DNA of 64,000 nucleotides from an uncultured archaeon (GTDB lineage Archaea > Asgardarchaeota > Lokiarchaeia > Sigyniarchaeales > SOKP01), in NCBI GenBank assembly GCA_964447495.1, contig CAYUTF010000002.1, positions 37,288 through 101,287 of the forward strand, read 5' to 3'. Numbering within the stretch: position 1 is the stretch's first letter; the number at the start of each line of letters is the position of its first letter. Below, in pieces: positions 3,689 to 63,695 of this stretch. The notes below the pieces were generated by a model. That model made no database searches, was not told the DNA's origin, and was given only the letters and a program-made list of their open reading frames with translations. The position numbers and the translations under genes were made by a program.

Positions 3689-4423
3689 ATGAGCTCAGAA
3701 CCAAATTTTAAAGATTTAGAAAACGATATTACAGAAATTCTCGAAAAAGAGATGAAAGAAAATGCGGGGATTCTTGGAATAACAATTTCTTCTCATGGAG
3801 GTACACACTTAGCTAGTAAATTTAAAAAAGATATCGCTATGAAAAGAACTGAGATTTCAGCAGCAAGTAGTAGTTTAGTATTTTTATCTTCAAAAATGTT
3901 ACAAGATGCATTAAATCAGAAAATTTCCTATAATTTGATTACTGGCAGTAAACGCATTATCCTATCAATCCTGACCGAAAATATAGCAATGATCTCATAT
4001 TTAAATCGAGAAATCGCTGAACTTGAAGGATTGGATACATATATCAACACTTTGAAAAAATTTTCCATGAAACTTTCCGCAATAATTGCAACATCAGATC
4101 TAATTAAAGAAGAGATTTTTGTTGCTATAAAGAGAGCAATTCCAAACGCTCTAGTAATAGCGATAATGACTAAAGATGGACTCCCCATTAAAATTCAATC
4201 AACGATGCCAGAACCGATACTTTCCGCCATGACATCCGCAATATATAATCTATCAAGTGTTTTATTAGAAGGTGGTTTGGAATTCTCAATAATTGGGGGT
4301 GAAAATGGATCTATCATTATCCATGAACTCGACAAAAATCGTATTATAGCAATTGCTGTACCTGAGGCGAATGAAAAAAAACTAGGAAGCTATATTGCTA
4401 AAATAAAAACTATAATCGAATAA
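3689..4423 (+). CDS. Tandem roadblock/LC7 domain protein
   Basis: Two ~120-aa units, GILGITISSHGGTHLAS..AASSSL and NALVIAIMTKDGLPI..SAMTSAI, typical of roadblock domains. Confidence 0.75.
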   Translation: MSSEPNFKDLENDITEILEKEMKENAGILGITISSHGGTHLASKFKKDIAMKRTEISAASSSLVFLSSKMLQDALNQKISYNLITGSKRIILSILTENIAMISYLNREIAELEGLDTYINTLKKFSMKLSAIIATSDLIKEEIFVAIKRAIPNALVIAIMTKDGLPIKIQSTMPEPILSAMTSAIYNLSSVLLEGGLEFSIIGGENGSIIIHELDKNRIIAIAVPEANEKKLGSYIAKIKTIIE

Positions 4424-4429
4424 GATACT

Positions 4430-5683
4430 TTAATTTCTAATTAGCTTTTCAATCTTGTCCACAACCTTTAGAGCACCAAAATAAGATTCTGCAAACGTGG
4501 TTCCATTATATAGTATTGTGCATAAAGGTTCATTCTTATAAATATCAAAATCAGGTGCTGATTTATCATGAACATAAGCCAATTTACTTATTTCATCTAA
4601 TTTGGAGCTTTTTATATCTTGAGAGGCAAATAAAATTAATTTTGTAGAAAAAGTATGGGTTTCAATAGTATCTAATCTCCTTAAGATAGTATTCCATTCA
4701 TCTTCAGAAAAAGATTGAATATGAAGATCCATTAAATTAATATTAAGTGCATTTTCTGACACCCTTAGAGAACCGGGGATTCTAGGATTAATTTCCATCA
4801 AATACGGATAATGATTTTTTAATACAAAATCAAATCCATTTATCCCTTTTAATTTTAATGTTTTAGTTAGAAAAAGAGAGATTTCTGTAATTATTTCATT
4901 ATCTATTTTAAGTAAATTTGCAGGTACAATATTTCCACAATAAGCAAACTGTTTAGGGGCATTTAGAAATTTTTCCCCAATTATTTGACGATTTATAGAG
5001 ATAACTTTAGTATTTACGCCATCAGAAATGATTGTGCAGCTTATAGGTAATCCTTGGATATATTCTTGAACTAACCATTCATTTGGTTGGAAGCCCTCAA
5101 CTCCAAGTAGCTTCATGAGAAAGAGATATTGGTCATATGTATCTATTTTATAAATATTTATACCTCCTGAACTCTTTTTCTTTTTCAAAATTAGCGGATA
5201 TTGTACATTTTGACTCTGAAAATCAAACTCATCAGCACTTATGCTAATAGGGTATTTATAGTTATATTTTTCTAATAAATTATATAATCCGTGTATATCT
5301 CGTGCTTTTTTTAATATTTCGATGTTGTTGTTCAAACTTTTTATGCCATATTTTTTATTCTTCAATTCTTGAAGAAATTGAGCTCTGTCATCAATGGCAT
5401 CATCTAATCCACTTCCAATAACGAGATTCTCTATTTTGGGATGCCTCTCTAACATTTTTAATGCGAATTTTAATAAATACTGACTATAAGAATTTTTTAA
5501 TACTTCATAATTTGCGCCAAGTTCCTTACTAATGATTAATGAATCTTTTACACAGGGAAATAAATCTACATCTCCAAAAAAATCCACAGCATATACCTTA
5601 TAACCCGCTAAATTTAAGGAAGTAGCTAATGGTCTAGTGTTAAAACCAACAACTAGTACAGAATTTTTATAATCACTCATCAA
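4430..5683 (-). CDS. ATP-grasp domain carboligase (COG2232-like)
   Basis: VLVVGFNTRPLA..AVDFFGDVDL, LKKKKSSGG, VQEYIQG, GFDFV and EINPRIPGS. Confidence 0.8.
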   Translation of the reverse strand: MMSDYKNSVLVVGFNTRPLATSLNLAGYKVYAVDFFGDVDLFPCVKDSLIISKELGANYEVLKNSYSQYLLKFALKMLERHPKIENLVIGSGLDDAIDDRAQFLQELKNKKYGIKSLNNNIEILKKARDIHGLYNLLEKYNYKYPISISADEFDFQSQNVQYPLILKKKKSSGGINIYKIDTYDQYLFLMKLLGVEGFQPNEWLVQEYIQGLPISCTIISDGVNTKVISINRQIIGEKFLNAPKQFAYCGNIVPANLLKIDNEIITEISLFLTKTLKLKGINGFDFVLKNHYPYLMEINPRIPGSLRVSENALNINLMDLHIQSFSEDEWNTILRRLDTIETHTFSTKLILFASQDIKSSKLDEISKLAYVHDKSAPDFDIYKNEPLCTILYNGTTFAESYFGALKVVDKIEKLIRN

Positions 5684-5722
5684 TCTAACAAATATTTCAA
5701 AAATTAAAACTTATTTTATATG

Positions 5723-7962
5723 TTAAAGAATCTTTTTTAACTCTAAAATTAGATTTTTGGGATTGACTCTGTCAAATTGATAAATTTCTGCTTTTCCGAA
5801 ATCTTTAAAATTCTCCTTTATCTTATTAGCAGCAAAAGTATTTACACCTAATCCTTGAGTGGCATAACTCTTTTTTGGTTCTAACACTACAAGATGAACC
5901 CCTTTTTTAGATAAAGCCTTTGTTAATTCTTTTAATTCATTGATAATCACATTATAATCACTTTGTACTTGGGCAATTAAATCAGGATATTTTACGGAAA
6001 TGTTTGCACCACAATCAGAACAAATAAAAATTACGGGGATTATATTTCTATTCTTTAATTTTTCTGCATTAATTAATTTAAGAGATTTCTTTAATGCTGC
6101 AGCCATTGGTGTATATGATTTTCCTTCAATATTTTTTACTTTATTGGCAGCATTCTTGAAATAAACCGTTGGTTTTTGAAGAACAACTGCATCTTTTCCT
6201 CGAAAAATTATCAGACTTATTTTGTCCTTCTTTCGATAACCTTCTTTTTGTAAAGATAAAATTACATCTGTCATTTGCTTTATTACATAGTACATCGAAG
6301 CAGAGCTGTCTAATACAAAAAATAAAACCAATGGTGCACGATATTCGTATATTTTGTCCATTAAATCATACTTATTGAATTTAATGGGAAAATCAATATC
6401 AGTTTGATTATATATTGTATTTTTCAAATAATTTCTGATAGTTGCATCTAATGCGATACTTTTGGGGTTATTAATTGGAGTTCGATATGATACGTACCTT
6501 CCTTTTTGTGAGGAAGAAATTTTGATTCTTCTTCCGATTCCTCTTCCACCATAGTTAGAAACTTTCCTTTCTTTTCGAATATTATCCAAAATCGAAGTCA
6601 TTTTTTTTTCCATTTTATAGATTAATGGGAGAGCATCGAAATCATAATCTAAAAAATCAAACAACTCCTCATTAAAGGGAATATCCTTTACTTTCCATCC
6701 TCCAGCCGGTGAAGGACTTCTTTTTTTATTATCATGATATTTTGGTGCCGGTAATTTCTGTTCTTTAGTTTCTGGTACATCAACCTTTTTTGGATCTATT
6801 GATTGCCGTTTAAATTCTTTCTGAGGGGCATCGTCATATTTCAGAGGACCTTCTGTGTCTTTATTCGGTTTATAGGTATTAGTATCTTCATATGCTTTCT
6901 GTATTTTTCCATATACCTCAACAATTTTAGCTTTTATCTCTTCCGGAGTCATCTCATAGTGAAGGGATTGAATACGATGTTCAAAAACTAAATCCATAGC
7001 TACATTCAAATCATCCTCAGCAACCATCTTTCTCCCGTTAAAAGCCGCATGAGCACGGGCACATCTGATAAAGGTAATATCTGCTCTTTGAGAAAAAATA
7101 CCTAATTCATTAACAAGCCTTGATACAAACTCATACACAGTAGAAGGAATTTGAACTTCTTTCATAATTTCACGAGCATTTTTTATTTTTTTCCTTAGCA
7201 TTTCCTGTTCTTCTTCATATAATTTATGAAATTCTTTTGGATTATCATCAAATTCTATAACTCGTCTTGAAATTTCTGCTCGTAATTTCGGATCACGAGG
7301 TGCTTTGATTTTAACTTCCAAACCTAGTCTGTCAGCTATCTGTGGGCGGAGTTCCCCCTTTCCGAATCCTAATTCGCTGTGAATATAGGATCTTCGGGGT
7401 TCATACTCCCGACCAAGATAAATCGCGAGGGATGAGATACAGAGATTCCTTCTCGTTCTATTATGTTAACACCTGATGCCGCTGAATCCAATAAAACATC
7501 TACGATGTGATCTTGTAATAGATTTATCTCATCTACGTAAAGAATTCCTCTGTGAGCTTTGGCAAGCAATCCAGGATGAAGACTGCGTATACCTTCTGTA
7601 AGTACTTTATCAATAGACAAAGATCCGCAGACCATATCTTCCGTAACTCCTAAAGGTAAGTCAATTATGCGCATGCTACGCCTTGCCCTTTCCATTGTTC
7701 CATCCTTAAGTTTAACACGACATTCATCACATAATTCATCAATTTCTGCGTTTGGATCACACGAAAACGTACAATCTTTCACCACTTCTATTTCAGGCAT
7801 CATTTCTGCCAAGCTTCTAACAGCCGTAGATTTTCCTGTTCCTTGTTGCCCAGTGAGTAATACTCCAGCAATTTGAGGGTCTATAACATTAAGAATTAGA
7901 CCCATTTTCATTATGTCTTGACCGAGTATTGCTGTAAATGGGAAACTATTCCTTTTTACCAT
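5723..7962 (-). CDS. Mg/Co-chelatase ChlD/ChlI-like AAA+ ATPase with C-terminal vWA domain; two exons (7962-7392, 7359-5723), 735 aa when spliced
   Basis: Walker A GQQGTGKS, Walker B LYVDEINLL, and vWA MIDAS DSSAS..T..SD. The two track ORFs join in frame (571+1637=2208 nt) and give MNPEEGELRPQIADRLGL when 7360-7391 is removed. Confidence 0.85.
7360..7391 (-). other. Putative 32-nt BHB-type mRNA intron (phase 1)
   Basis: AUCCUAUAUUCACAGCGAAUUAGGAUUCGGAA. Central helix CCGA/UCGG, bulges AG^A and AA^A, intron stems UCCU/AGGA and AUUC/GAAU. Contains an in-frame UAG. Confidence 0.8.
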
Positions 7963-8036
7963 AACTTGATGTTAAAAGTTTCATTTTTATTAAAAATTTC
8001 CCATTATAACAAAGTATTAGAGATATTATTACAAAG

Positions 8037-8432
8037 TTAGCAATTTGAATAATATTGCTTGAAGAATTTTATGATAGATAATGCTTCATAACCTTTTTTT
8101 GTTAATTCATACTTCCAAGAAATGTTTTTTTTATCAATTTTTATATAATATTCAGGGTAATCATTTCTATTAAAAAAACTGACTATCGTTCTCGGATTTT
8201 TAATATGTAGAGCATTGGCTAAGGCCTTGCTAGTTATTGATTCACCTGATTTGGACATTTTATAAATAGTTTTTAAATATTTAACAAAATTATCACTTAA
8301 TCTTTTAGGTAGTTTTAAGGGATCTTGAATTAAATTACTCTTATTTACAAATTTAAAATTTTTTTTCACCATATTTTTTTTTAAAGCTTCCCTTTGCTGA
8401 TTAAAAAGTTTTCCATTTAATAAGAGTTTCAT
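8037..8432 (-). CDS. Basic hypothetical protein with possible winged-helix C-terminus; may be a gene remnant
   Basis: ITSKALANALHIKNPRTIVSFF..WKYELTKKGYEAL is wHTH-like. The frame continues upstream to a TAA at 8478-8480. Confidence 0.45.
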   Translation of the reverse strand: MKLLLNGKLFNQQREALKKNMVKKNFKFVNKSNLIQDPLKLPKRLSDNFVKYLKTIYKMSKSGESITSKALANALHIKNPRTIVSFFNRNDYPEYYIKIDKKNISWKYELTKKGYEALSIIKFFKQYYSNC

Positions 8433-8509
8433 AGATTCCAGACCTTTACCCTCCGAATTTAATTTCCATTTTTTCGATTATTGTCTTAATTCTATAGTAT
8501 ACTTTCTTC

Positions 8510-8782
8510 TTATATAAGTAATTTCTTTAAATTATTATAAAATGCATCTGCTTCATGGAAGGCATCTTTAAAAGCCTTATTTCGCTTGTATGCTAATGCT
8601 TTCTCTATTTTAGAAGGTAATGATTCCACTTCTGCTCGATCACCAGTTAAAAATAGCCATCGTCCAAAAGTGTCAAACGATTGAGCGAACGTTCGTATTA
8701 CATCGAAAGGGATAGGAACGTCTTTCGCACGAGAAGTCTGAATGAAACTAGCAATCATGCTTCTTAAGCTCCACATCACCAT
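8510..8782 (-). CDS. Hypothetical protein
   Basis: 90-aa ORF with no recognised motif. Confidence 0.35.
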   Translation of the reverse strand: MVMWSLRSMIASFIQTSRAKDVPIPFDVIRTFAQSFDTFGRWLFLTGDRAEVESLPSKIEKALAYKRNKAFKDAFHEADAFYNNLKKLLI

Positions 8783-8864
8783 TGCGCCCCCTAAATTTTT
8801 ATTAAAAGTAGGATGGAATAGGAAAAATAAGTAGTTCTATAAACTGGTTTTGATTGTAAGAATG

Positions 8865-9044
8865 CTATGTGGGAAAAGTATCTTCGTGGAATTCATCTTC
8901 ATTTTCACCCATTTTCTCATCTTCATCATTTTTTTTATTCCAGTCCTTGTCTTCTTCTTCTGTATTGTCTTCCTCGCGATTTATACTCCTCTCATTCCAT
9001 TCATCAGTTTTAATTTTTCTTTTACCTTTATTTTTTTTCTTCAT
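8865..9044 (-). CDS. Small charged protein, 59 aa (basic N-terminus, acidic remainder)
   Basis: Hand translation: MKKKNKGKRKIKTDEWNERSINREEDNTEEEDKDWNKKNDEDEKMGENEDEFHEDTFPT. This explains the Ser/Phe-rich plus-strand shadow ORFs. Confidence 0.45.
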   Translation of the reverse strand: MKKKNKGKRKIKTDEWNERSINREEDNTEEEDKDWNKKNDEDEKMGENEDEFHEDTFPT

Positions 9045-9326
9045 GATAATATTATCTATTAAGCATTTTTTCCAGTATGTATTTCAAATTTCAATTCATA
9101 ATTTTAAATATTAGCGTTTTAAATTATAAAATCTCTAAAAATATTAATTACTCTTATTTAAAGAATGTTGTTCATATGATTTTATTTATTTTTATCTTAA
9201 CACTTAATAAAGGCAATAGATCATTCAATTCAAAATGCAAACCAATCTAAGAATTCAAACCTATAAACAAATAATTAATAGTAAGAAATGAAACGTTAAA
9301 AAAAAAGCATTTCGATAAGCTATTTT

Positions 9327-10277
9327 TTAGAATTTTTTAGAAATTTCCATTAATTTTGTGTCTAATTTGGTTACTTCTTCATCCCATTCGGATAAAATAG
9401 CCTCCACTTGGGGAATAATCTCTGTTCTTTCTTTATATTCAAGATAATCCATGAATTCTTTGATATTGGCAATTTTTATATAGGTTTCTGCTACAAACTT
9501 TCTAATTTCATGAACTTGATTATTTAATACCTCTGGGACTCTGTGAGATTCGCCTTTTCGAACTAATGTTGTCAAATATTCTTCAGTACCAAGTAATAAA
9601 GCTTTAAATTTAGTCAATTTATCTTGTATATATTTCTCGTATGTTTCAAAGAGATTGTCCTTAGGGAAGTAATTTGTCACATCAATTATGAATTTATGAG
9701 TTTGATTTACCAGTTGCTCCATACTTTCGTATCCTTCGATGCGGTAATCTACAGTATGATAAGATGCTTCAATTCCTCGAGATGTATCATCTAAGCTGAA
9801 TATTTTAAAGCCTGGATCATTTTTAAGAGGTTTTTCTGGATCTCCTTTCTTATCAGGCATTTCTACTTGACGAATTAACCTTTCAGGGTTAAAAACGAGA
9901 GTGAAATACAAAGGATTGGCCGTTTGATGAAAAGCAAGATGTCTAATATCAATATGACTTAACATCACTTTAAATCCGGGATGTGTATGCCACGCTCCAA
10001 CTGTGTATAAGCCCCTTGAAAATGCTTCATCATCAATTAAAGTATATGTAATGTTATCTTCTTCTGACCATTCATATTTATCTATAACAGCATCTTTATC
10101 CAATTTTTCATGCATAATAGGATAAGATTCTTTTATAATGATATCCTCTTCTTTTTTCTCACCAATAAAAACACCATTTACTTCTAACCACACATCTTTT
10201 GAGATTTTTTGATTGGCAAATCGTACAGCTGCGGCCACAATCGTTAGATAAACTTTTTTTGGTATAATTACCGTCAT
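9327..10277 (-). CDS. JAB1/MPN+ (JAMM) metalloprotease-domain protein
   Basis: LEVNGVFIG (catalytic Glu) and GAWHTHPGFKVMLSHID (H-x-H..S..D). Confidence 0.85.
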   Translation of the reverse strand: MTVIIPKKVYLTIVAAAVRFANQKISKDVWLEVNGVFIGEKKEEDIIIKESYPIMHEKLDKDAVIDKYEWSEEDNITYTLIDDEAFSRGLYTVGAWHTHPGFKVMLSHIDIRHLAFHQTANPLYFTLVFNPERLIRQVEMPDKKGDPEKPLKNDPGFKIFSLDDTSRGIEASYHTVDYRIEGYESMEQLVNQTHKFIIDVTNYFPKDNLFETYEKYIQDKLTKFKALLLGTEEYLTTLVRKGESHRVPEVLNNQVHEIRKFVAETYIKIANIKEFMDYLEYKERTEIIPQVEAILSEWDEEVTKLDTKLMEISKKF

Positions 10278-26561: not shown

Positions 26562-28014
26562 TCACTCTATGAAAATATTTCTAAATCTATTTATAACTTT
26601 TTCAATTATGTTTTTTAACTTTTTAGGACCAATCTTAATTATAATAAAAAGTGTAATGATTAGGATAACAATAGATAAAGTAATCATTATTCCAATAAGA
26701 AACTTGAAGATTAGAGTATAATATATCGATGCTAGTGTTATCTGATAGAGTGTTGTTATAAAACCTATTTTGAAAAACTGTTTAAAACTGATAGGACGCT
26801 TATTTTGTTCAGCTATTTGGACTACTAATATGTTATCCCCAAGCGGTGTAAGATTATCTCCCCAATTAGCTCCAATAGCTAGACAAAAGAAAAATTGATG
26901 TCGCATAGCTGATGGGTAGTTATTTGAAATGGTATTTATGACAGGGATTAACAATTTAGTTATAGGAATATTATCAATAGCACTGCTTAAAAATGAAGAT
27001 ATCCAGAGAATAATAATGAGTTGAGAAAATATATCTCCTCCAGAGAGATTTGACATTATTTCTCCCAGGAATTGAACAACTCCCAGGATATCAAGAGCTC
27101 CAGCAATAATAAATATCCCCAAAAGATAGAGGATTAACTCAAAATCTATTTTAGAAATAATTTGTTTTGCTTCAAGTCTACTAATGATTATTAAAAATAA
27201 TGCCATAATTAACGCAATTATATCAGTAGGTAATATTGATGTAGGAATAATAATAAACAAGATAAATACAAGGATTAACGTAAATAGTGATTTTAATAAC
27301 AACATTTTATTAGGTACAAAATTCCATACATTAAATTCTCTTAAAATTTTAATACCTTCTTGGGGGATGTCTAGGGATTTCCTAAATATAAAAATAAAGA
27401 AGACAAGTGTTAAACAAAAATTATTAAAGAAATCGTTCCAACATTCAAAAAGAAATCAATAAATTGAATATCAGCATAAGTACTAATTAATATATTAGGT
27501 ATAGATGAAATCGTGAAAAAAGTTCCACCAATATTGACTAAAATTGCTTGAGTTAGTATATAAGCAGAAGGATTTACATTTAAAATACGAGAAACTGTTA
27601 TTGTCAGAGGGATAAGTATAATAACAGTCAGAATGTTGTTTAATATCGCAGAAATAAATATCGTAATTAAACAAAAAATTGACATTAGATAAAGTGGCTT
27701 TCCTTTTGATAGTTTAATTAAGTTTAAAGCGATATATTGAAAAAGCCCTGCTTCATTAGAAATTGCCACAATAAGCATCATGCTTATAATTAAAATAAGG
27801 GAGTGAAGATTTACAAAACCTTCACTTTCAGTTCCAAATAATAGTTCAATGATTACATTAAAGTTCATTCCTTCTAAGAACGTTCATACAAAATAAACAA
27901 TAACTGCTCCTGATAAAGCTGCTATTGCTCTATTTAATTTTTCTGTGATTATAAGAATTATTACTCCAATGAAACATCCTAAAGCTATAATTATACTAAG
28001 AATTTTATAATCAC
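26562..28014 (-). pseudogene. SLC13/ArsB/NhaD-family permease, disrupted
   Basis: Homology runs from ~28014 (DYKILSIIIAL..EKLNRAIAAL). There is no in-frame start, an in-frame TGA at 27884-27886, and a 1-nt frameshift in a T-run near 27410. SAILNN and SSAIDNIP motifs are present. Confidence 0.7.
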
Positions 28015-62700: not shown

Positions 62701-63695
62701 TTTGAGATAGTAAGGGTCATTGCATCATTGAAATCTGGCAACCCTCCACCAAAACTCATAGAAATGATATCTGCTCCTGGTCCTCCGCTTAACTCCGGCT
62801 TTACAGCCCATTGAATAGCAGCAATAATATCTCCATCACTTAAACCTGTAAAATTTCCTGCTCTAGCATTAATTAACGAAACACCTGGCGCGACACCTCT
62901 ATATTTCCCACTTGAAGAAATACCCGTGCTACCAATCAGACCAGCAGCATGGGTTCCATGACCATAATCATCATTTGAATTAAATAGGTCTCCTGTCACA
63001 AAACTTTCATTGGCAACGATATTTAAATCAGGATGTTCATATATACCCGTATCTACTACAGCTACTCTTACACCCGTGCCATCGTAAGTTAAATCATCAG
63101 CACCTATTGCAGGGATCCACCAATTTGGATAATCATTAGCATTTAAGCTACTAGAATTCGGAATTCCATCAGAATAATCTGGATTTTTATAAAATTGGGA
63201 TTTACATATTTTAGAAATTTCTGTTACTCCATTAAGAATCTCTTGTTTTGAAATTAATTCTGCAGATTTACATATTAAATATACTCCAGAGATGATATTA
63301 TAATTGCTAATAATCTCATAAAACTCGAATATATTATCAATAATATTGATTCGATCTTCCTTAGCTATTCCCTCTTTAAAAAGTATGATTACTTTTACCC
63401 TATCTGATGCTGATTCGTATCCTAAAGAATAATTTAAGAGAAATTCTGTGAGGGATTCATCAAAGATGGTCACTTCTTTGTTATTATTATAATTAGAATC
63501 AATATTAATTTCATCTTGGTCTGTTGAGATTAACTTGGTTAAATAATCATAATCTAGGTTAACATTCGTAGCAACATTCTTGTCAACGTTTAAATTGTAG
63601 CTATAGGCTATCAATGGGATGCTTAGTAAATTGATTAGGATGAATGTTAAGATTAAGGCTTTTTTGTATATTTCGAAATATTTCATAGCTATCAA
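59706..63695 (-). CDS. Membrane-anchored S8 subtilase with GATase-like domain, C-terminal TM and cytoplasmic zinc ribbon
   Basis: Signal peptide; triad DTG/HGT/GTSM; TM segment LVLILIIVGLIIGIGAIVIITLVV; tail CPYCG..CPNCG. Confidence 0.88.
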   Translation of the reverse strand: MIAMKYFEIYKKALILTFILINLLSIPLIAYSYNLNVDKNVATNVNLDYDYLTKLISTDQDEINIDSNYNNNKEVTIFDESLTEFLLNYSLGYESASDRVKVIILFKEGIAKEDRINIIDNIFEFYEIISNYNIISGVYLICKSAELISKQEILNGVTEISKICKSQFYKNPDYSDGIPNSSSLNANDYPNWWIPAIGADDLTYDGTGVRVAVVDTGIYEHPDLNIVANESFVTGDLFNSNDDYGHGTHAAGLIGSTGISSSGKYRGVAPGVSLINARAGNFTGLSDGDIIAAIQWAVKPELSGGPGADIISMSFGGGLPDFNDAMTLTISKVANDYGVILVSSAGNSGPDYLTGGSPASGNDVIAVGATDKNNYLASFTSWGPTLTYLGYPDVVAPGVNVISTEAPGSVISDEKRYIGDYFDFPDDGDYIPLSGTSMACPIVAGALAILKEAYPSITPETARIALLEGAKPLSNYDSDDTLKFGAGLINVSASLEYLDSISLDVNDTAKFFPDIIPLKPFDLLNFPGDAQSFNITVISGKANSYDVNIPNKINGLKLDLDHTTLTFSEENVKFLILDIEIEQGANPGIRSFEMNLTIGANVYDSIIITIDIKFPEYKVLMESYHGLNDWFPEISFYQMDFYAFMKDLTELNISVDYSAQYWTPYYNVDYDNSLLTEERLAQYDLIVLQNPILPYTLEEMKNLNSYFENGGNILFLGTRYQDLCIDNINTLFSILGSDITINEENVYNENWLGIGASINSQSVTDLSVSPIFNGVDKFQWNYGNTFDVGVKSESIASLDGNTVVATYNETNLGGKLVAFGDLYWASEFYTSTNYQLDHAKLAQNLMDYFFSADDISIQIGLDSERTANAQINLSIYIKDKELGKPIDSSILNTNLSIIISNTGYFETITTTSIEDGIAYNTTFSLPSTNYSPYTISLNFTLGSTIYQKNSKILYYNPASMPSINSLDVSSSPVYRELGDSTWLLADLDNTLYDVNAYLSIYSYSFYNTKKTVNKTFSMTYNMPFSAYRYDFDPSLSDPSGVAIFYIISKNTATNYTNPYSPRFPFEVRNNPPTFIESSSFITIDGQTTFAFDETYEGESSYLIPVSQGSSLDFSVAAADSVSYEDINSANMRISVNLFIVSTTVDGYINIIYPRSLPLKELSYQSGTNSHQGTFVIPYTIAYNSISGIKYISTATNYDTSTDEGYLAILLITLIDSEGGSEDFLILLSIRASLQLDLVLILIIVGLIIGIGAIVIITLVVKSRRSKRSAESSEYYPQDYYTTPEQDTTYETQPSGSQGYRIGFYCPYCGYNIGSPKNFCPNCGKTLYFE

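Follow-up and report, generated by a model that had tools for sequence, protein, structure and literature searches.

How can one conserved protein be read from a gene whose frame is both stopped and shifted? The question arises in a 64,000-nucleotide stretch of archaeal DNA (contig CAYUTF010000002.1, positions 37,288 to 101,287; G+C ~30%), referred to here as the window, where a gene for a ChlI-like AAA+/vWA protein carries a 32-nucleotide (nt) insert at positions 7360–7391 of the minus strand. We propose that the insert is very probably a bulge-helix-bulge (BHB) intron, of the type recognized by the archaeal endonuclease, lying within coding sequence in Promethearchaeota (Asgard archaea), the phylum that also supplies the best protein matches to the joined product. 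That the RNA is actually cut and ligated, and by which enzymes, we infer.

The minus strand reads ...AGT ATG AAC CCC GAA G, followed by ATCCTATATTCACAGCGAATTAGGATTCGGAA, followed by AG GGG GAA CTC CGC CCA CAG.... Two open reading frames (ORFs) share the gene. The first, of 197 amino acids (aa), occupies 7369..7962 on the minus strand and ends in the tail ...GSMNPEDPIFTAN before its stop codon; the second, of 532 aa (5723..7321, minus strand), lies in a different frame. Read without splicing, the exon-1 frame meets TAG at 7371–7369, and the 32 nt also shift the frame. Deletion of 7360–7391 yields a single 2,208-nt ORF of 735 aa, which crosses the junction as ...GSMNPEEGELRPQIADR... (in a longer stretch, ...GSMNPEEGELRPQIADRLGLEVK...) and restores the ChlI-type motif NPEEGELRPQ, invariant in 29 of 29 relatives. 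The predicted spliced junction joins ...AACCCCGAAG to AGGGGGAACUCC..., so that after exact removal of the 32 nt ...AACCCCGAAG abuts AGGGGGAACTCC.... Moving both cuts one base 3′ (7359–7390) gives an identical messenger RNA (mRNA), but BHB geometry fits 7360–7391 only. The original prediction had quoted these letters, this fusion of the 197- and 532-aa ORFs and this double disruption by stop and frameshift, and all three are borne out by direct reading. The gene would thus be divided as follows:

7392..7962, minus strand: exon 1; codons 1–190 and the first base, G, of codon 191; the Walker A/B part, ending ...GSMNPE + G; matches Pfam Mg_chelatase/AAA_5 and aligns to PDB 6L8D.
7360..7391, minus strand: putative intron, AUCCUAUAUUCACAGCGAAUUAGGAUUCGGAA; 32 nt, with the in-frame stop TAG at 7371–7369; homologous inserts in 33 loci.
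5723..7359, minus strand: exon 2; AG, 544 codons and a stop; GELRPQIADR (Arg-finger segment), AAA lid, linker and C-terminal vWA.

The insert is real DNA and no assembly error, since four other samples (JGI 3300031551, JGI 3300031652 and runs SRR9710542 and SRR9707468) yielded assemblies of the identical interrupted sequence, with 0–1 mismatches over 1.4–2.6 kb. Nor is the interruption confined to one genome. The closest full-length homologues (75–84% identity) have no interruption at this site. A search with the 197-aa ORF, however, returned ~25 further protein clusters of 188–198 aa, one of them from the original Lokiarchaeum sediment metagenome, that end just past MNPE with differing tails (DPTFMSN, DSQFISN, VSFFN, VFLFN, EILN, ELLN, DS and others). 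We then scanned metagenome contigs for codons encoding MNPE and G-E/D-L-R-P-Q spaced 18–48 nt apart, a search that is specific for the site and blind to the sequence of the insert. Together with contig look-ups, this found the same codon interrupted in 33 loci of independent metagenomes (JGI, NCBI, ENA and Logan assemblies), among which 22 distinct sequences are represented. The inserts are 30, 31 or 32 nt long and hence occupy all three reading-frame phases; their position is conserved across the 22 sequences and their sequence is not. In the 30-nt class both exons share a frame and are parted by stop codons alone, as in locus L122, whose in-frame insert carries two TAA codons. At least 25 database clusters, labelled as truncated ~190–198-aa 'ATP-binding proteins' and separate vWA proteins, are most likely one gene.

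A scan of genome contigs for the peptide pattern GSMNPEE, which passes over interrupted genes, found the nearest species representatives (L003–L005) to be intron-free. A rough neighbour-joining tree, a single topology built on 190 N-terminal residues, puts all intron-bearing genes in one clade of Promethearchaeota, interleaved with intron-free sisters; the insert is absent from more distant clades, Lokiarchaeum ossiferum among them. The junction codons were uninformative as a test of intron loss by retro-processing, GAA and GAG being mixed. We rejected one candidate member, the more distant homologue L129 (3540–3640; 61% identity; tail NPRA followed by a stop), in which the segment EEGELRPQ...APRD has been lost with a change of frame, as a deletion or pseudogene.

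What marks the insert as a probable intron is its predicted structure. In a BHB, a 4-bp helix carries 3-nt bulges on opposite strands, each bulge is cut after its second base, and a further helix lies on either side (PMC6379350). In the proposed pre-mRNA, exonic CCGA would pair with intronic UCGG; on its 5′ strand this helix would be bordered by an A-G-A loop and on its 3′ strand by an A-A-A bulge, with CC/GG closing outside and the intron hairpin inside. The tRNA-splicing endonuclease EndA would cut past the second base of each bulge, and an RtcB-type ligase would join ...CCCGAAG to AGGGGGAA..., recreating the codon GAG and with it an unbroken 735-aa frame through NPEEGELRPQ. The elements of this structure are:

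7398..7399, minus strand: outer helix h1, 5′ strand CC; pairs with GG at 7357–7358; only 2 bp.
7394..7397, minus strand: central BHB helix, 5′ strand CCGA; exonic, within codons CCC GAA; pairs with UCGG at 7362–7365; also recovered by RNAalifold.
7391..7393, minus strand: 5′ bulge A-G-A; predicted cut past the second base of the bulge, between 7392 and 7391; faces U7366, giving a 3×1 internal loop or a 2-nt bulge; relaxed form.
7367..7390, minus strand: inner stem-loop of the putative intron; UCCUA/UAGGA (7386–7390 with 7367–7371), bulged U7385, AUUC/GAAU (7381–7384 with 7372–7375), loop ACAGC (7376–7380).
7362..7365, minus strand: central BHB helix, 3′ strand UCGG; intronic; an extra U7366 just upstream is able to pair with A7393.
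7359..7361, minus strand: 3′ bulge A-A-A; predicted cut between 7360 and 7359; alignment columns 56–58, unpaired in both the named and the RNAalifold structures.
7357..7358, minus strand: outer helix h1′, GG; exon 2, within codon GGG.

The window copy therefore has a 4-bp CCGA/UCGG helix, a clean AAA 3′ bulge and an AGA 5′ bulge that faces an extra U, a 3×1 loop that becomes a 2-nt bulge if A and U pair. It is flanked by at least 2 bp on each side (2 bp of CC/GG in h1, 5+4 bp in the inner stem). CC/GG, CCGA/UCGG, the AAA bulge and AGA opposite one U had been named in the original prediction and are all present, and its description of the 5′ site as relaxed, in the form of a bulge-helix-loop (BHL), agrees with RNAalifold, in which the extra U is paired and a bulge of 2 nt is left.

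To ask how well geometry alone locates the junction, all cut-site pairs within ±30 nt (~4,000 per sequence) were scored against the BHB in the 22 sequences and the rank of the pair that restores both frame and EEG was noted. In the window this pair ranks 2nd of ~4,100, and it ranks 1st or 2nd in 15 of the 22 sequences, the worst rank being 23rd. The helices that bring this about are not the same. Inserts of 31 and 32 nt use CCGA/UCGG; the 30-nt inserts L096, L099 and L113 use CGAA with UUCG or UUUG, both cuts being displaced by one base; and inserts of the EILN/ELLN type (L120, L122 and L125; 30–31 nt) use GAGG with CCUU or ACUU. The rule by which cuts at 7392/7391 and 7360/7359 give the codon GAG and the intact 735-aa frame holds in all 22 sequences and in three registers. 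L113 and L125 are strict BHBs, with a 4-bp helix, two 3-nt bulges and a 9-bp inner stem, and in L125 the BHB is the unconstrained minimum free energy (MFE) fold. That a single structural rule should predict the right junction for three lengths and three unrelated helices is, in our view, the strongest single argument for an intron.

Covariation points the same way. In the twelve 32-nt members, which align without gaps, the share of paired cells is 100% for h1 (CC/GG), where C-G is replaced by U·G in three sequences, 98% for the central helix and 90% for the inner stem. Within the inner stem, three pairs have changed on both sides, column 28–49 being C-G in six sequences and U-A in the other six. 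Loop bases vary freely, and it is in the loop that close relatives differ. The named structure as a whole is paired in 86% of cells, a share that drops to at most 56% once the partners are shifted by 1–3 columns, and its covariation score was reached by 0 of 500 shuffles. Without a supplied structure, RNAalifold recovers the central helix, extended to 5 bp through the extra U, together with the inner stem. Structure is thus conserved over sequence, both in this covariation and in the three alternative central helices of the different classes. One proposed part did not survive comparison: an outer helix GGAGU/ACUCC exists in the window, but only 63% of its cells are paired and pair 9–68 occurs in the window alone. 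We dropped it from the motif as unconserved in relatives.

The coding sequence beyond the insert behaves as part of one protein. Exon 2 is intact, at 544–546 codons, in 11 of 11 intron-bearing loci long enough to judge, and its pairwise ratios of non-synonymous to synonymous substitution (dN/dS) are 0.03–0.10 with synonymous sites saturated. The 12 codons that follow the insert always encode GELRPQIADRLG, with a few D or F variants, while drawing across loci on four codons each for Gly, Pro and Ala and on all six for Arg. In the window, the exon-2 frame has no ATG, GTG or TTG between the upstream stop (7465) and the TTG at 7321, which lies past these 12 codons; their conservation is hence not due to independent initiation. 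Purifying selection acts on both exons.

Several observations weigh against an intron. Splicing at this locus is predicted from DNA, and no captured spliced transcript was found among database proteins, where the nearest intron-free relative is at most 92% identical. The window motif is relaxed, its 5′ site being a 3×1 loop or 2-nt bulge and its h1 only 2 bp, and RNAalifold does not choose h1. The 31-nt class is the least canonical: here h1 can be kept only by counting the 3′ bulge as 4 nt (4-A), and the BHB-constrained energy lies 7 kcal/mol above the MFE. Invariance of the helix is not independent evidence, because one half of every helix lies in an exon, where coding constrains it. The 64-kb window contains no tRNA genes. 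Finally, there is the folding check proposed in the original prediction. The region does fold better than shuffled sequences (z = −2.8), which, with the geometric rank and the 33 interrupted loci, shows that the match exceeds chance, but the unconstrained MFE fold of the window (7335–7420) is not the BHB; it pairs CCCC/GGGG around a hairpin, and the BHB conformer lies 3 kcal/mol higher. We retain the BHB because of the comparative evidence.

Could the interrupted message be decoded uncut? The ribosome would then pass the insert by programmed frameshifting, stop readthrough or bypassing of the gene-60 type. Both exons are clearly translated, and a short insert with a hairpin and a stop near its start is superficially like the gap of T4 gene 60. 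Yet because all three phases occur, RNA-level removal explains the 30-, 31- and 32-nt classes at once, whereas recoding needs a separate mechanism for each: double readthrough in L122 and two different frameshifts for 31 and 32 nt. There is no slippery heptamer in GAA GAU CCU AUA UUC ACA GCG AAU UAG, and take-off and landing codons do not match (GAA against AAG before GGG in the exon-2 frame). A frameshift product would, moreover, add 10–11 residues to the invariant motif. We regard recoding as very improbable, and give a true split gene, in which separate products of 197 and ~530 aa would assemble non-covalently, an equally small chance. In every database the locus is annotated by gene callers as two ORFs, and Mg-chelatases naturally have separate I and D subunits. 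The break, however, does not fall at the I/D boundary; it parts NPE from the Arg-finger segment inside the AAA+ core; exon 2 lacks a start codon until 12 codons past the junction, over codons that are under extreme purifying selection; and in the 30-nt class only stops separate exons that share one frame. Orthologues split at this site into separately translated halves had been named as grounds for abandoning the original prediction. The split is literally seen, but separately translated halves are not possible. Orthologue splits instead support an intron, because they fall inside the AAA+ core and exon 2 has no start codon.

Removal of the insert by machinery other than EndA and RtcB, whether another structure-specific nuclease with a ligase or a self-processing RNA, seems to us very unlikely. 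The relaxed motif of the window and the quite non-canonical 31-nt class would sit well with it; against it, the EndA rule predicts the correct junction in three registers, the family includes strict BHBs, 30–32 nt is below the size of known ribozyme introns, and no Rfam family matched in 6800–8000. Least credible of all, and extremely unlikely, is a dead gene, meaning a pseudogene inactivated by insertion, or else a fault of assembly. A stop and a frameshift do suggest inactivation, and annotators see a truncated gene, but the sequence is identical in five assemblies, the interruption persists across synonymously saturated lineages with both exons intact and dN/dS as low as given above, and the stems of the insert are conserved as its loop drifts. 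An EndA-type intron remains the reading we prefer.

The protein that splicing would restore is a ChlI/BchI-type AAA+ protein with a C-terminal vWA domain. Pfam assigns Mg_chelatase (PF01078), AAA lid (PF17863) and vWA (PF13519) to the joined sequence, all over their cut-offs, and also names AAA_5 and AAA_lid_2. Residues 1–323 align over the full length of cyanobacterial ChlI (PDB 6L8D, E = 7e-100; other ChlI/BchI structures are 8OSF and 1G8P), with NPEEGELRPQ identical across the junction; the C-terminal vWA is as in ChlD/BchD. Unlike ChlI/BchI, the protein fuses I-like and D-like parts in one chain and has a Cys-x3-Cys...Cys-x2-Cys insertion that is absent from ChlI. Four Cys in this segment are invariant in the Asgard ChlI-like proteins (C64-x3-C68...C78-x2-C81; window 7720–7775, minus strand; residues 64–81). 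Cyanobacterial ChlI has no Cys between C64 and C81, and protein P0013 lacks the whole segment. From its sequence, the segment resembles a small insertion in the AAA+ module that would bind zinc.

Around the gene (window 3689–10277) lie one or more JAB/MPN proteins, a small winged-helix-like ORF, an ATP-grasp ligase and, on the opposite strand, a Roadblock/LC7-like gene. The order JAB/MPN, split AAA+-vWA, ATP-grasp, Roadblock/LC7 is kept around related inserts (L122, L125 and L127). No tetrapyrrole or ChlH/CobN genes adjoin the AAA+-vWA gene in the window or the related loci. With JAB/MPN, ATP-grasp and Roadblock neighbours and no tetrapyrrole genes, a chelatase function appears unlikely, and the name 'chelatase' is probably misleading.

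The same gene family is interrupted at a second site. In the sister lineage closest to the window that lacks the first insert (P0001, P0002, P0003 and P0013), the ORF stops at 348 aa. An insert of exactly 30 nt, in frame and with one or two stops, lies there between YGK and IEKAYED, ~150 codons downstream of the first site (for example ttacagagaattcctctttaagccggacaa; loci L130:4930–5030, L131:1505–1605, L132:1275–1375, and also L133 and L134). This site is uninterrupted in 16 of 16 other loci and in the window (6884–6913, minus strand). The ~100 codons past the insert are conserved as protein and contain no in-frame ATG, GTG or TTG. No strict BHB was found at the second site; a mismatch-tolerant one (CGG/CCG plus an A·G mismatch, with bulges AAA and A-N-A) gives the right junction. 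The insert may be a relaxed BHB intron, and gene fission at the natural AAA-lid/linker domain boundary is also possible.

A scan of the whole window for ORFs split by a BHB gave 27 candidates, including 7360–7391. We rejected 25 of these as AT-rich helices at ordinary gene boundaries, and 27375–27415 as a 1-nt frameshift. The latter lies in a CitMHS/ArsB-type permease gene (~26.1–27.9 kb, minus strand) that is split into ORFs of 156 and 270 aa, with its Pfam domain spanning the break. The 1-nt frameshift falls at a run of five T near 27416–27420 and may be a sequencing error, a pseudogene or slippage; no stop closes the downstream frame across the gap, where it codes for a transmembrane helix also present in an intact paralogue at ~31.5–32.7 kb (plus strand). 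Elsewhere, TAGAATTCGGAA at 63152–63163 (plus strand) is identical to the 3′ end of one intron variant seen among relatives. It was discounted as a second intron 3′ end, being antisense within an intact 1,329-aa subtilase-like ORF, and is a chance match around an EcoRI palindrome.

If the intron is genuine, EndA-type mRNA splicing is no crenarchaeal curiosity, and introns removed from protein genes by protein enzymes are placed in the Asgard archaea. These are the closest known archaeal relatives of eukaryotes, and their EndA type is considered ancestral to the eukaryotic enzyme. The family would also provide a natural series of strict and relaxed substrates with which to probe the tolerance of EndA outside a tRNA body. 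A wider reading, which we think unlikely at present, is that EndA-type splicing of mRNA may be a regular occurrence in Promethearchaeota and not peculiar to one gene. On that reading, since this gene family has stop-containing mini-inserts at two sites in sister lineages, intron-bearing genes could lie unrecognised behind many of the Asgard ORFs that databases list as 'split' or 'truncated'. Splicing could also act as an on/off switch like that of eukaryotic HAC1/XBP1, since a message left unspliced would yield no more than a truncated Walker-A/B fragment.

In archaeal tRNA and rRNA, BHB introns are commonplace. Those introns, including relaxed hBH/HBh′/BHL forms at non-canonical positions, share with the present inserts the definition of the motif (two 3-nt bulges and a 4-bp helix), the size range and the predicted enzymes (PMC6379350, PMC5829648); the tRNA introns are 11–175 nt long (PMC2738675). 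The substrate here differs in being an mRNA without a tRNA body, the exonic half of its motif being fixed by the codons for N-P-E-E-G. The BHB intron in the 5′ untranslated region (UTR) of Haloferax volcanii HVO_1309 is, as predicted for the present insert, an EndA substrate within an mRNA, but it lies in the untranslated leader, leaves the reading frame unbroken and occurs in a host with an α′2 EndA (PMC7714728). HAC1/XBP1 splicing resembles our model in that a protein endonuclease reads paired stem-loops in an mRNA, an RNA ligase follows, and removal of a very short intron changes both frame and protein. There, IRE1 cuts and RtcB (in metazoa) or Trl1 ligates. IRE1 is, however, unrelated to EndA, its substrate presents two 7-nt loops and the reaction is a regulated stress switch, so that the likeness is a mechanistic analogy and not membership of one class.

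The nearest counterpart is the cbf5 intron of Crenarchaeota, reportedly first described by Watanabe and colleagues in 2002. Besides the Haloferax 5′-UTR intron, it was the only archaeal mRNA intron of this kind reported as of 2020 (PMC7714728). Our literature search, incomplete in coverage, found no paper on BHB introns in Asgard protein-coding or chelatase-like genes, and an earlier description is possible. Like the inserts described here as we interpret them, the cbf5 intron is a short BHB-type intron in protein-coding sequence, often with a relaxed motif (Yokobori et al. 2009, PMC2738675), and its origin has been tied to cleavage of relaxed motifs outside the tRNA context (PMC2738675). It too has a scattered distribution inside a single clade, as would fit a gain and then repeated precise losses, and we count among the likenesses that its hosts have a hetero-oligomeric, broad-specificity EndA (PMC2738675). 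The genes and lineages differ, cbf5 encoding a pseudouridine synthase in Crenarchaeota and the present gene a ChlI-like AAA+/vWA protein in Promethearchaeota; splicing of cbf5 has been shown by experiment, whereas that of AAA+/vWA is predicted by comparison of sequences. The AAA+/vWA inserts differ, too, in showing at a single site three helix registers as well as three lengths. The AAA+/vWA intron would therefore belong to the cbf5 class of mechanism, but would add a second gene family and a new phylum to those with BHB introns in coding sequence.

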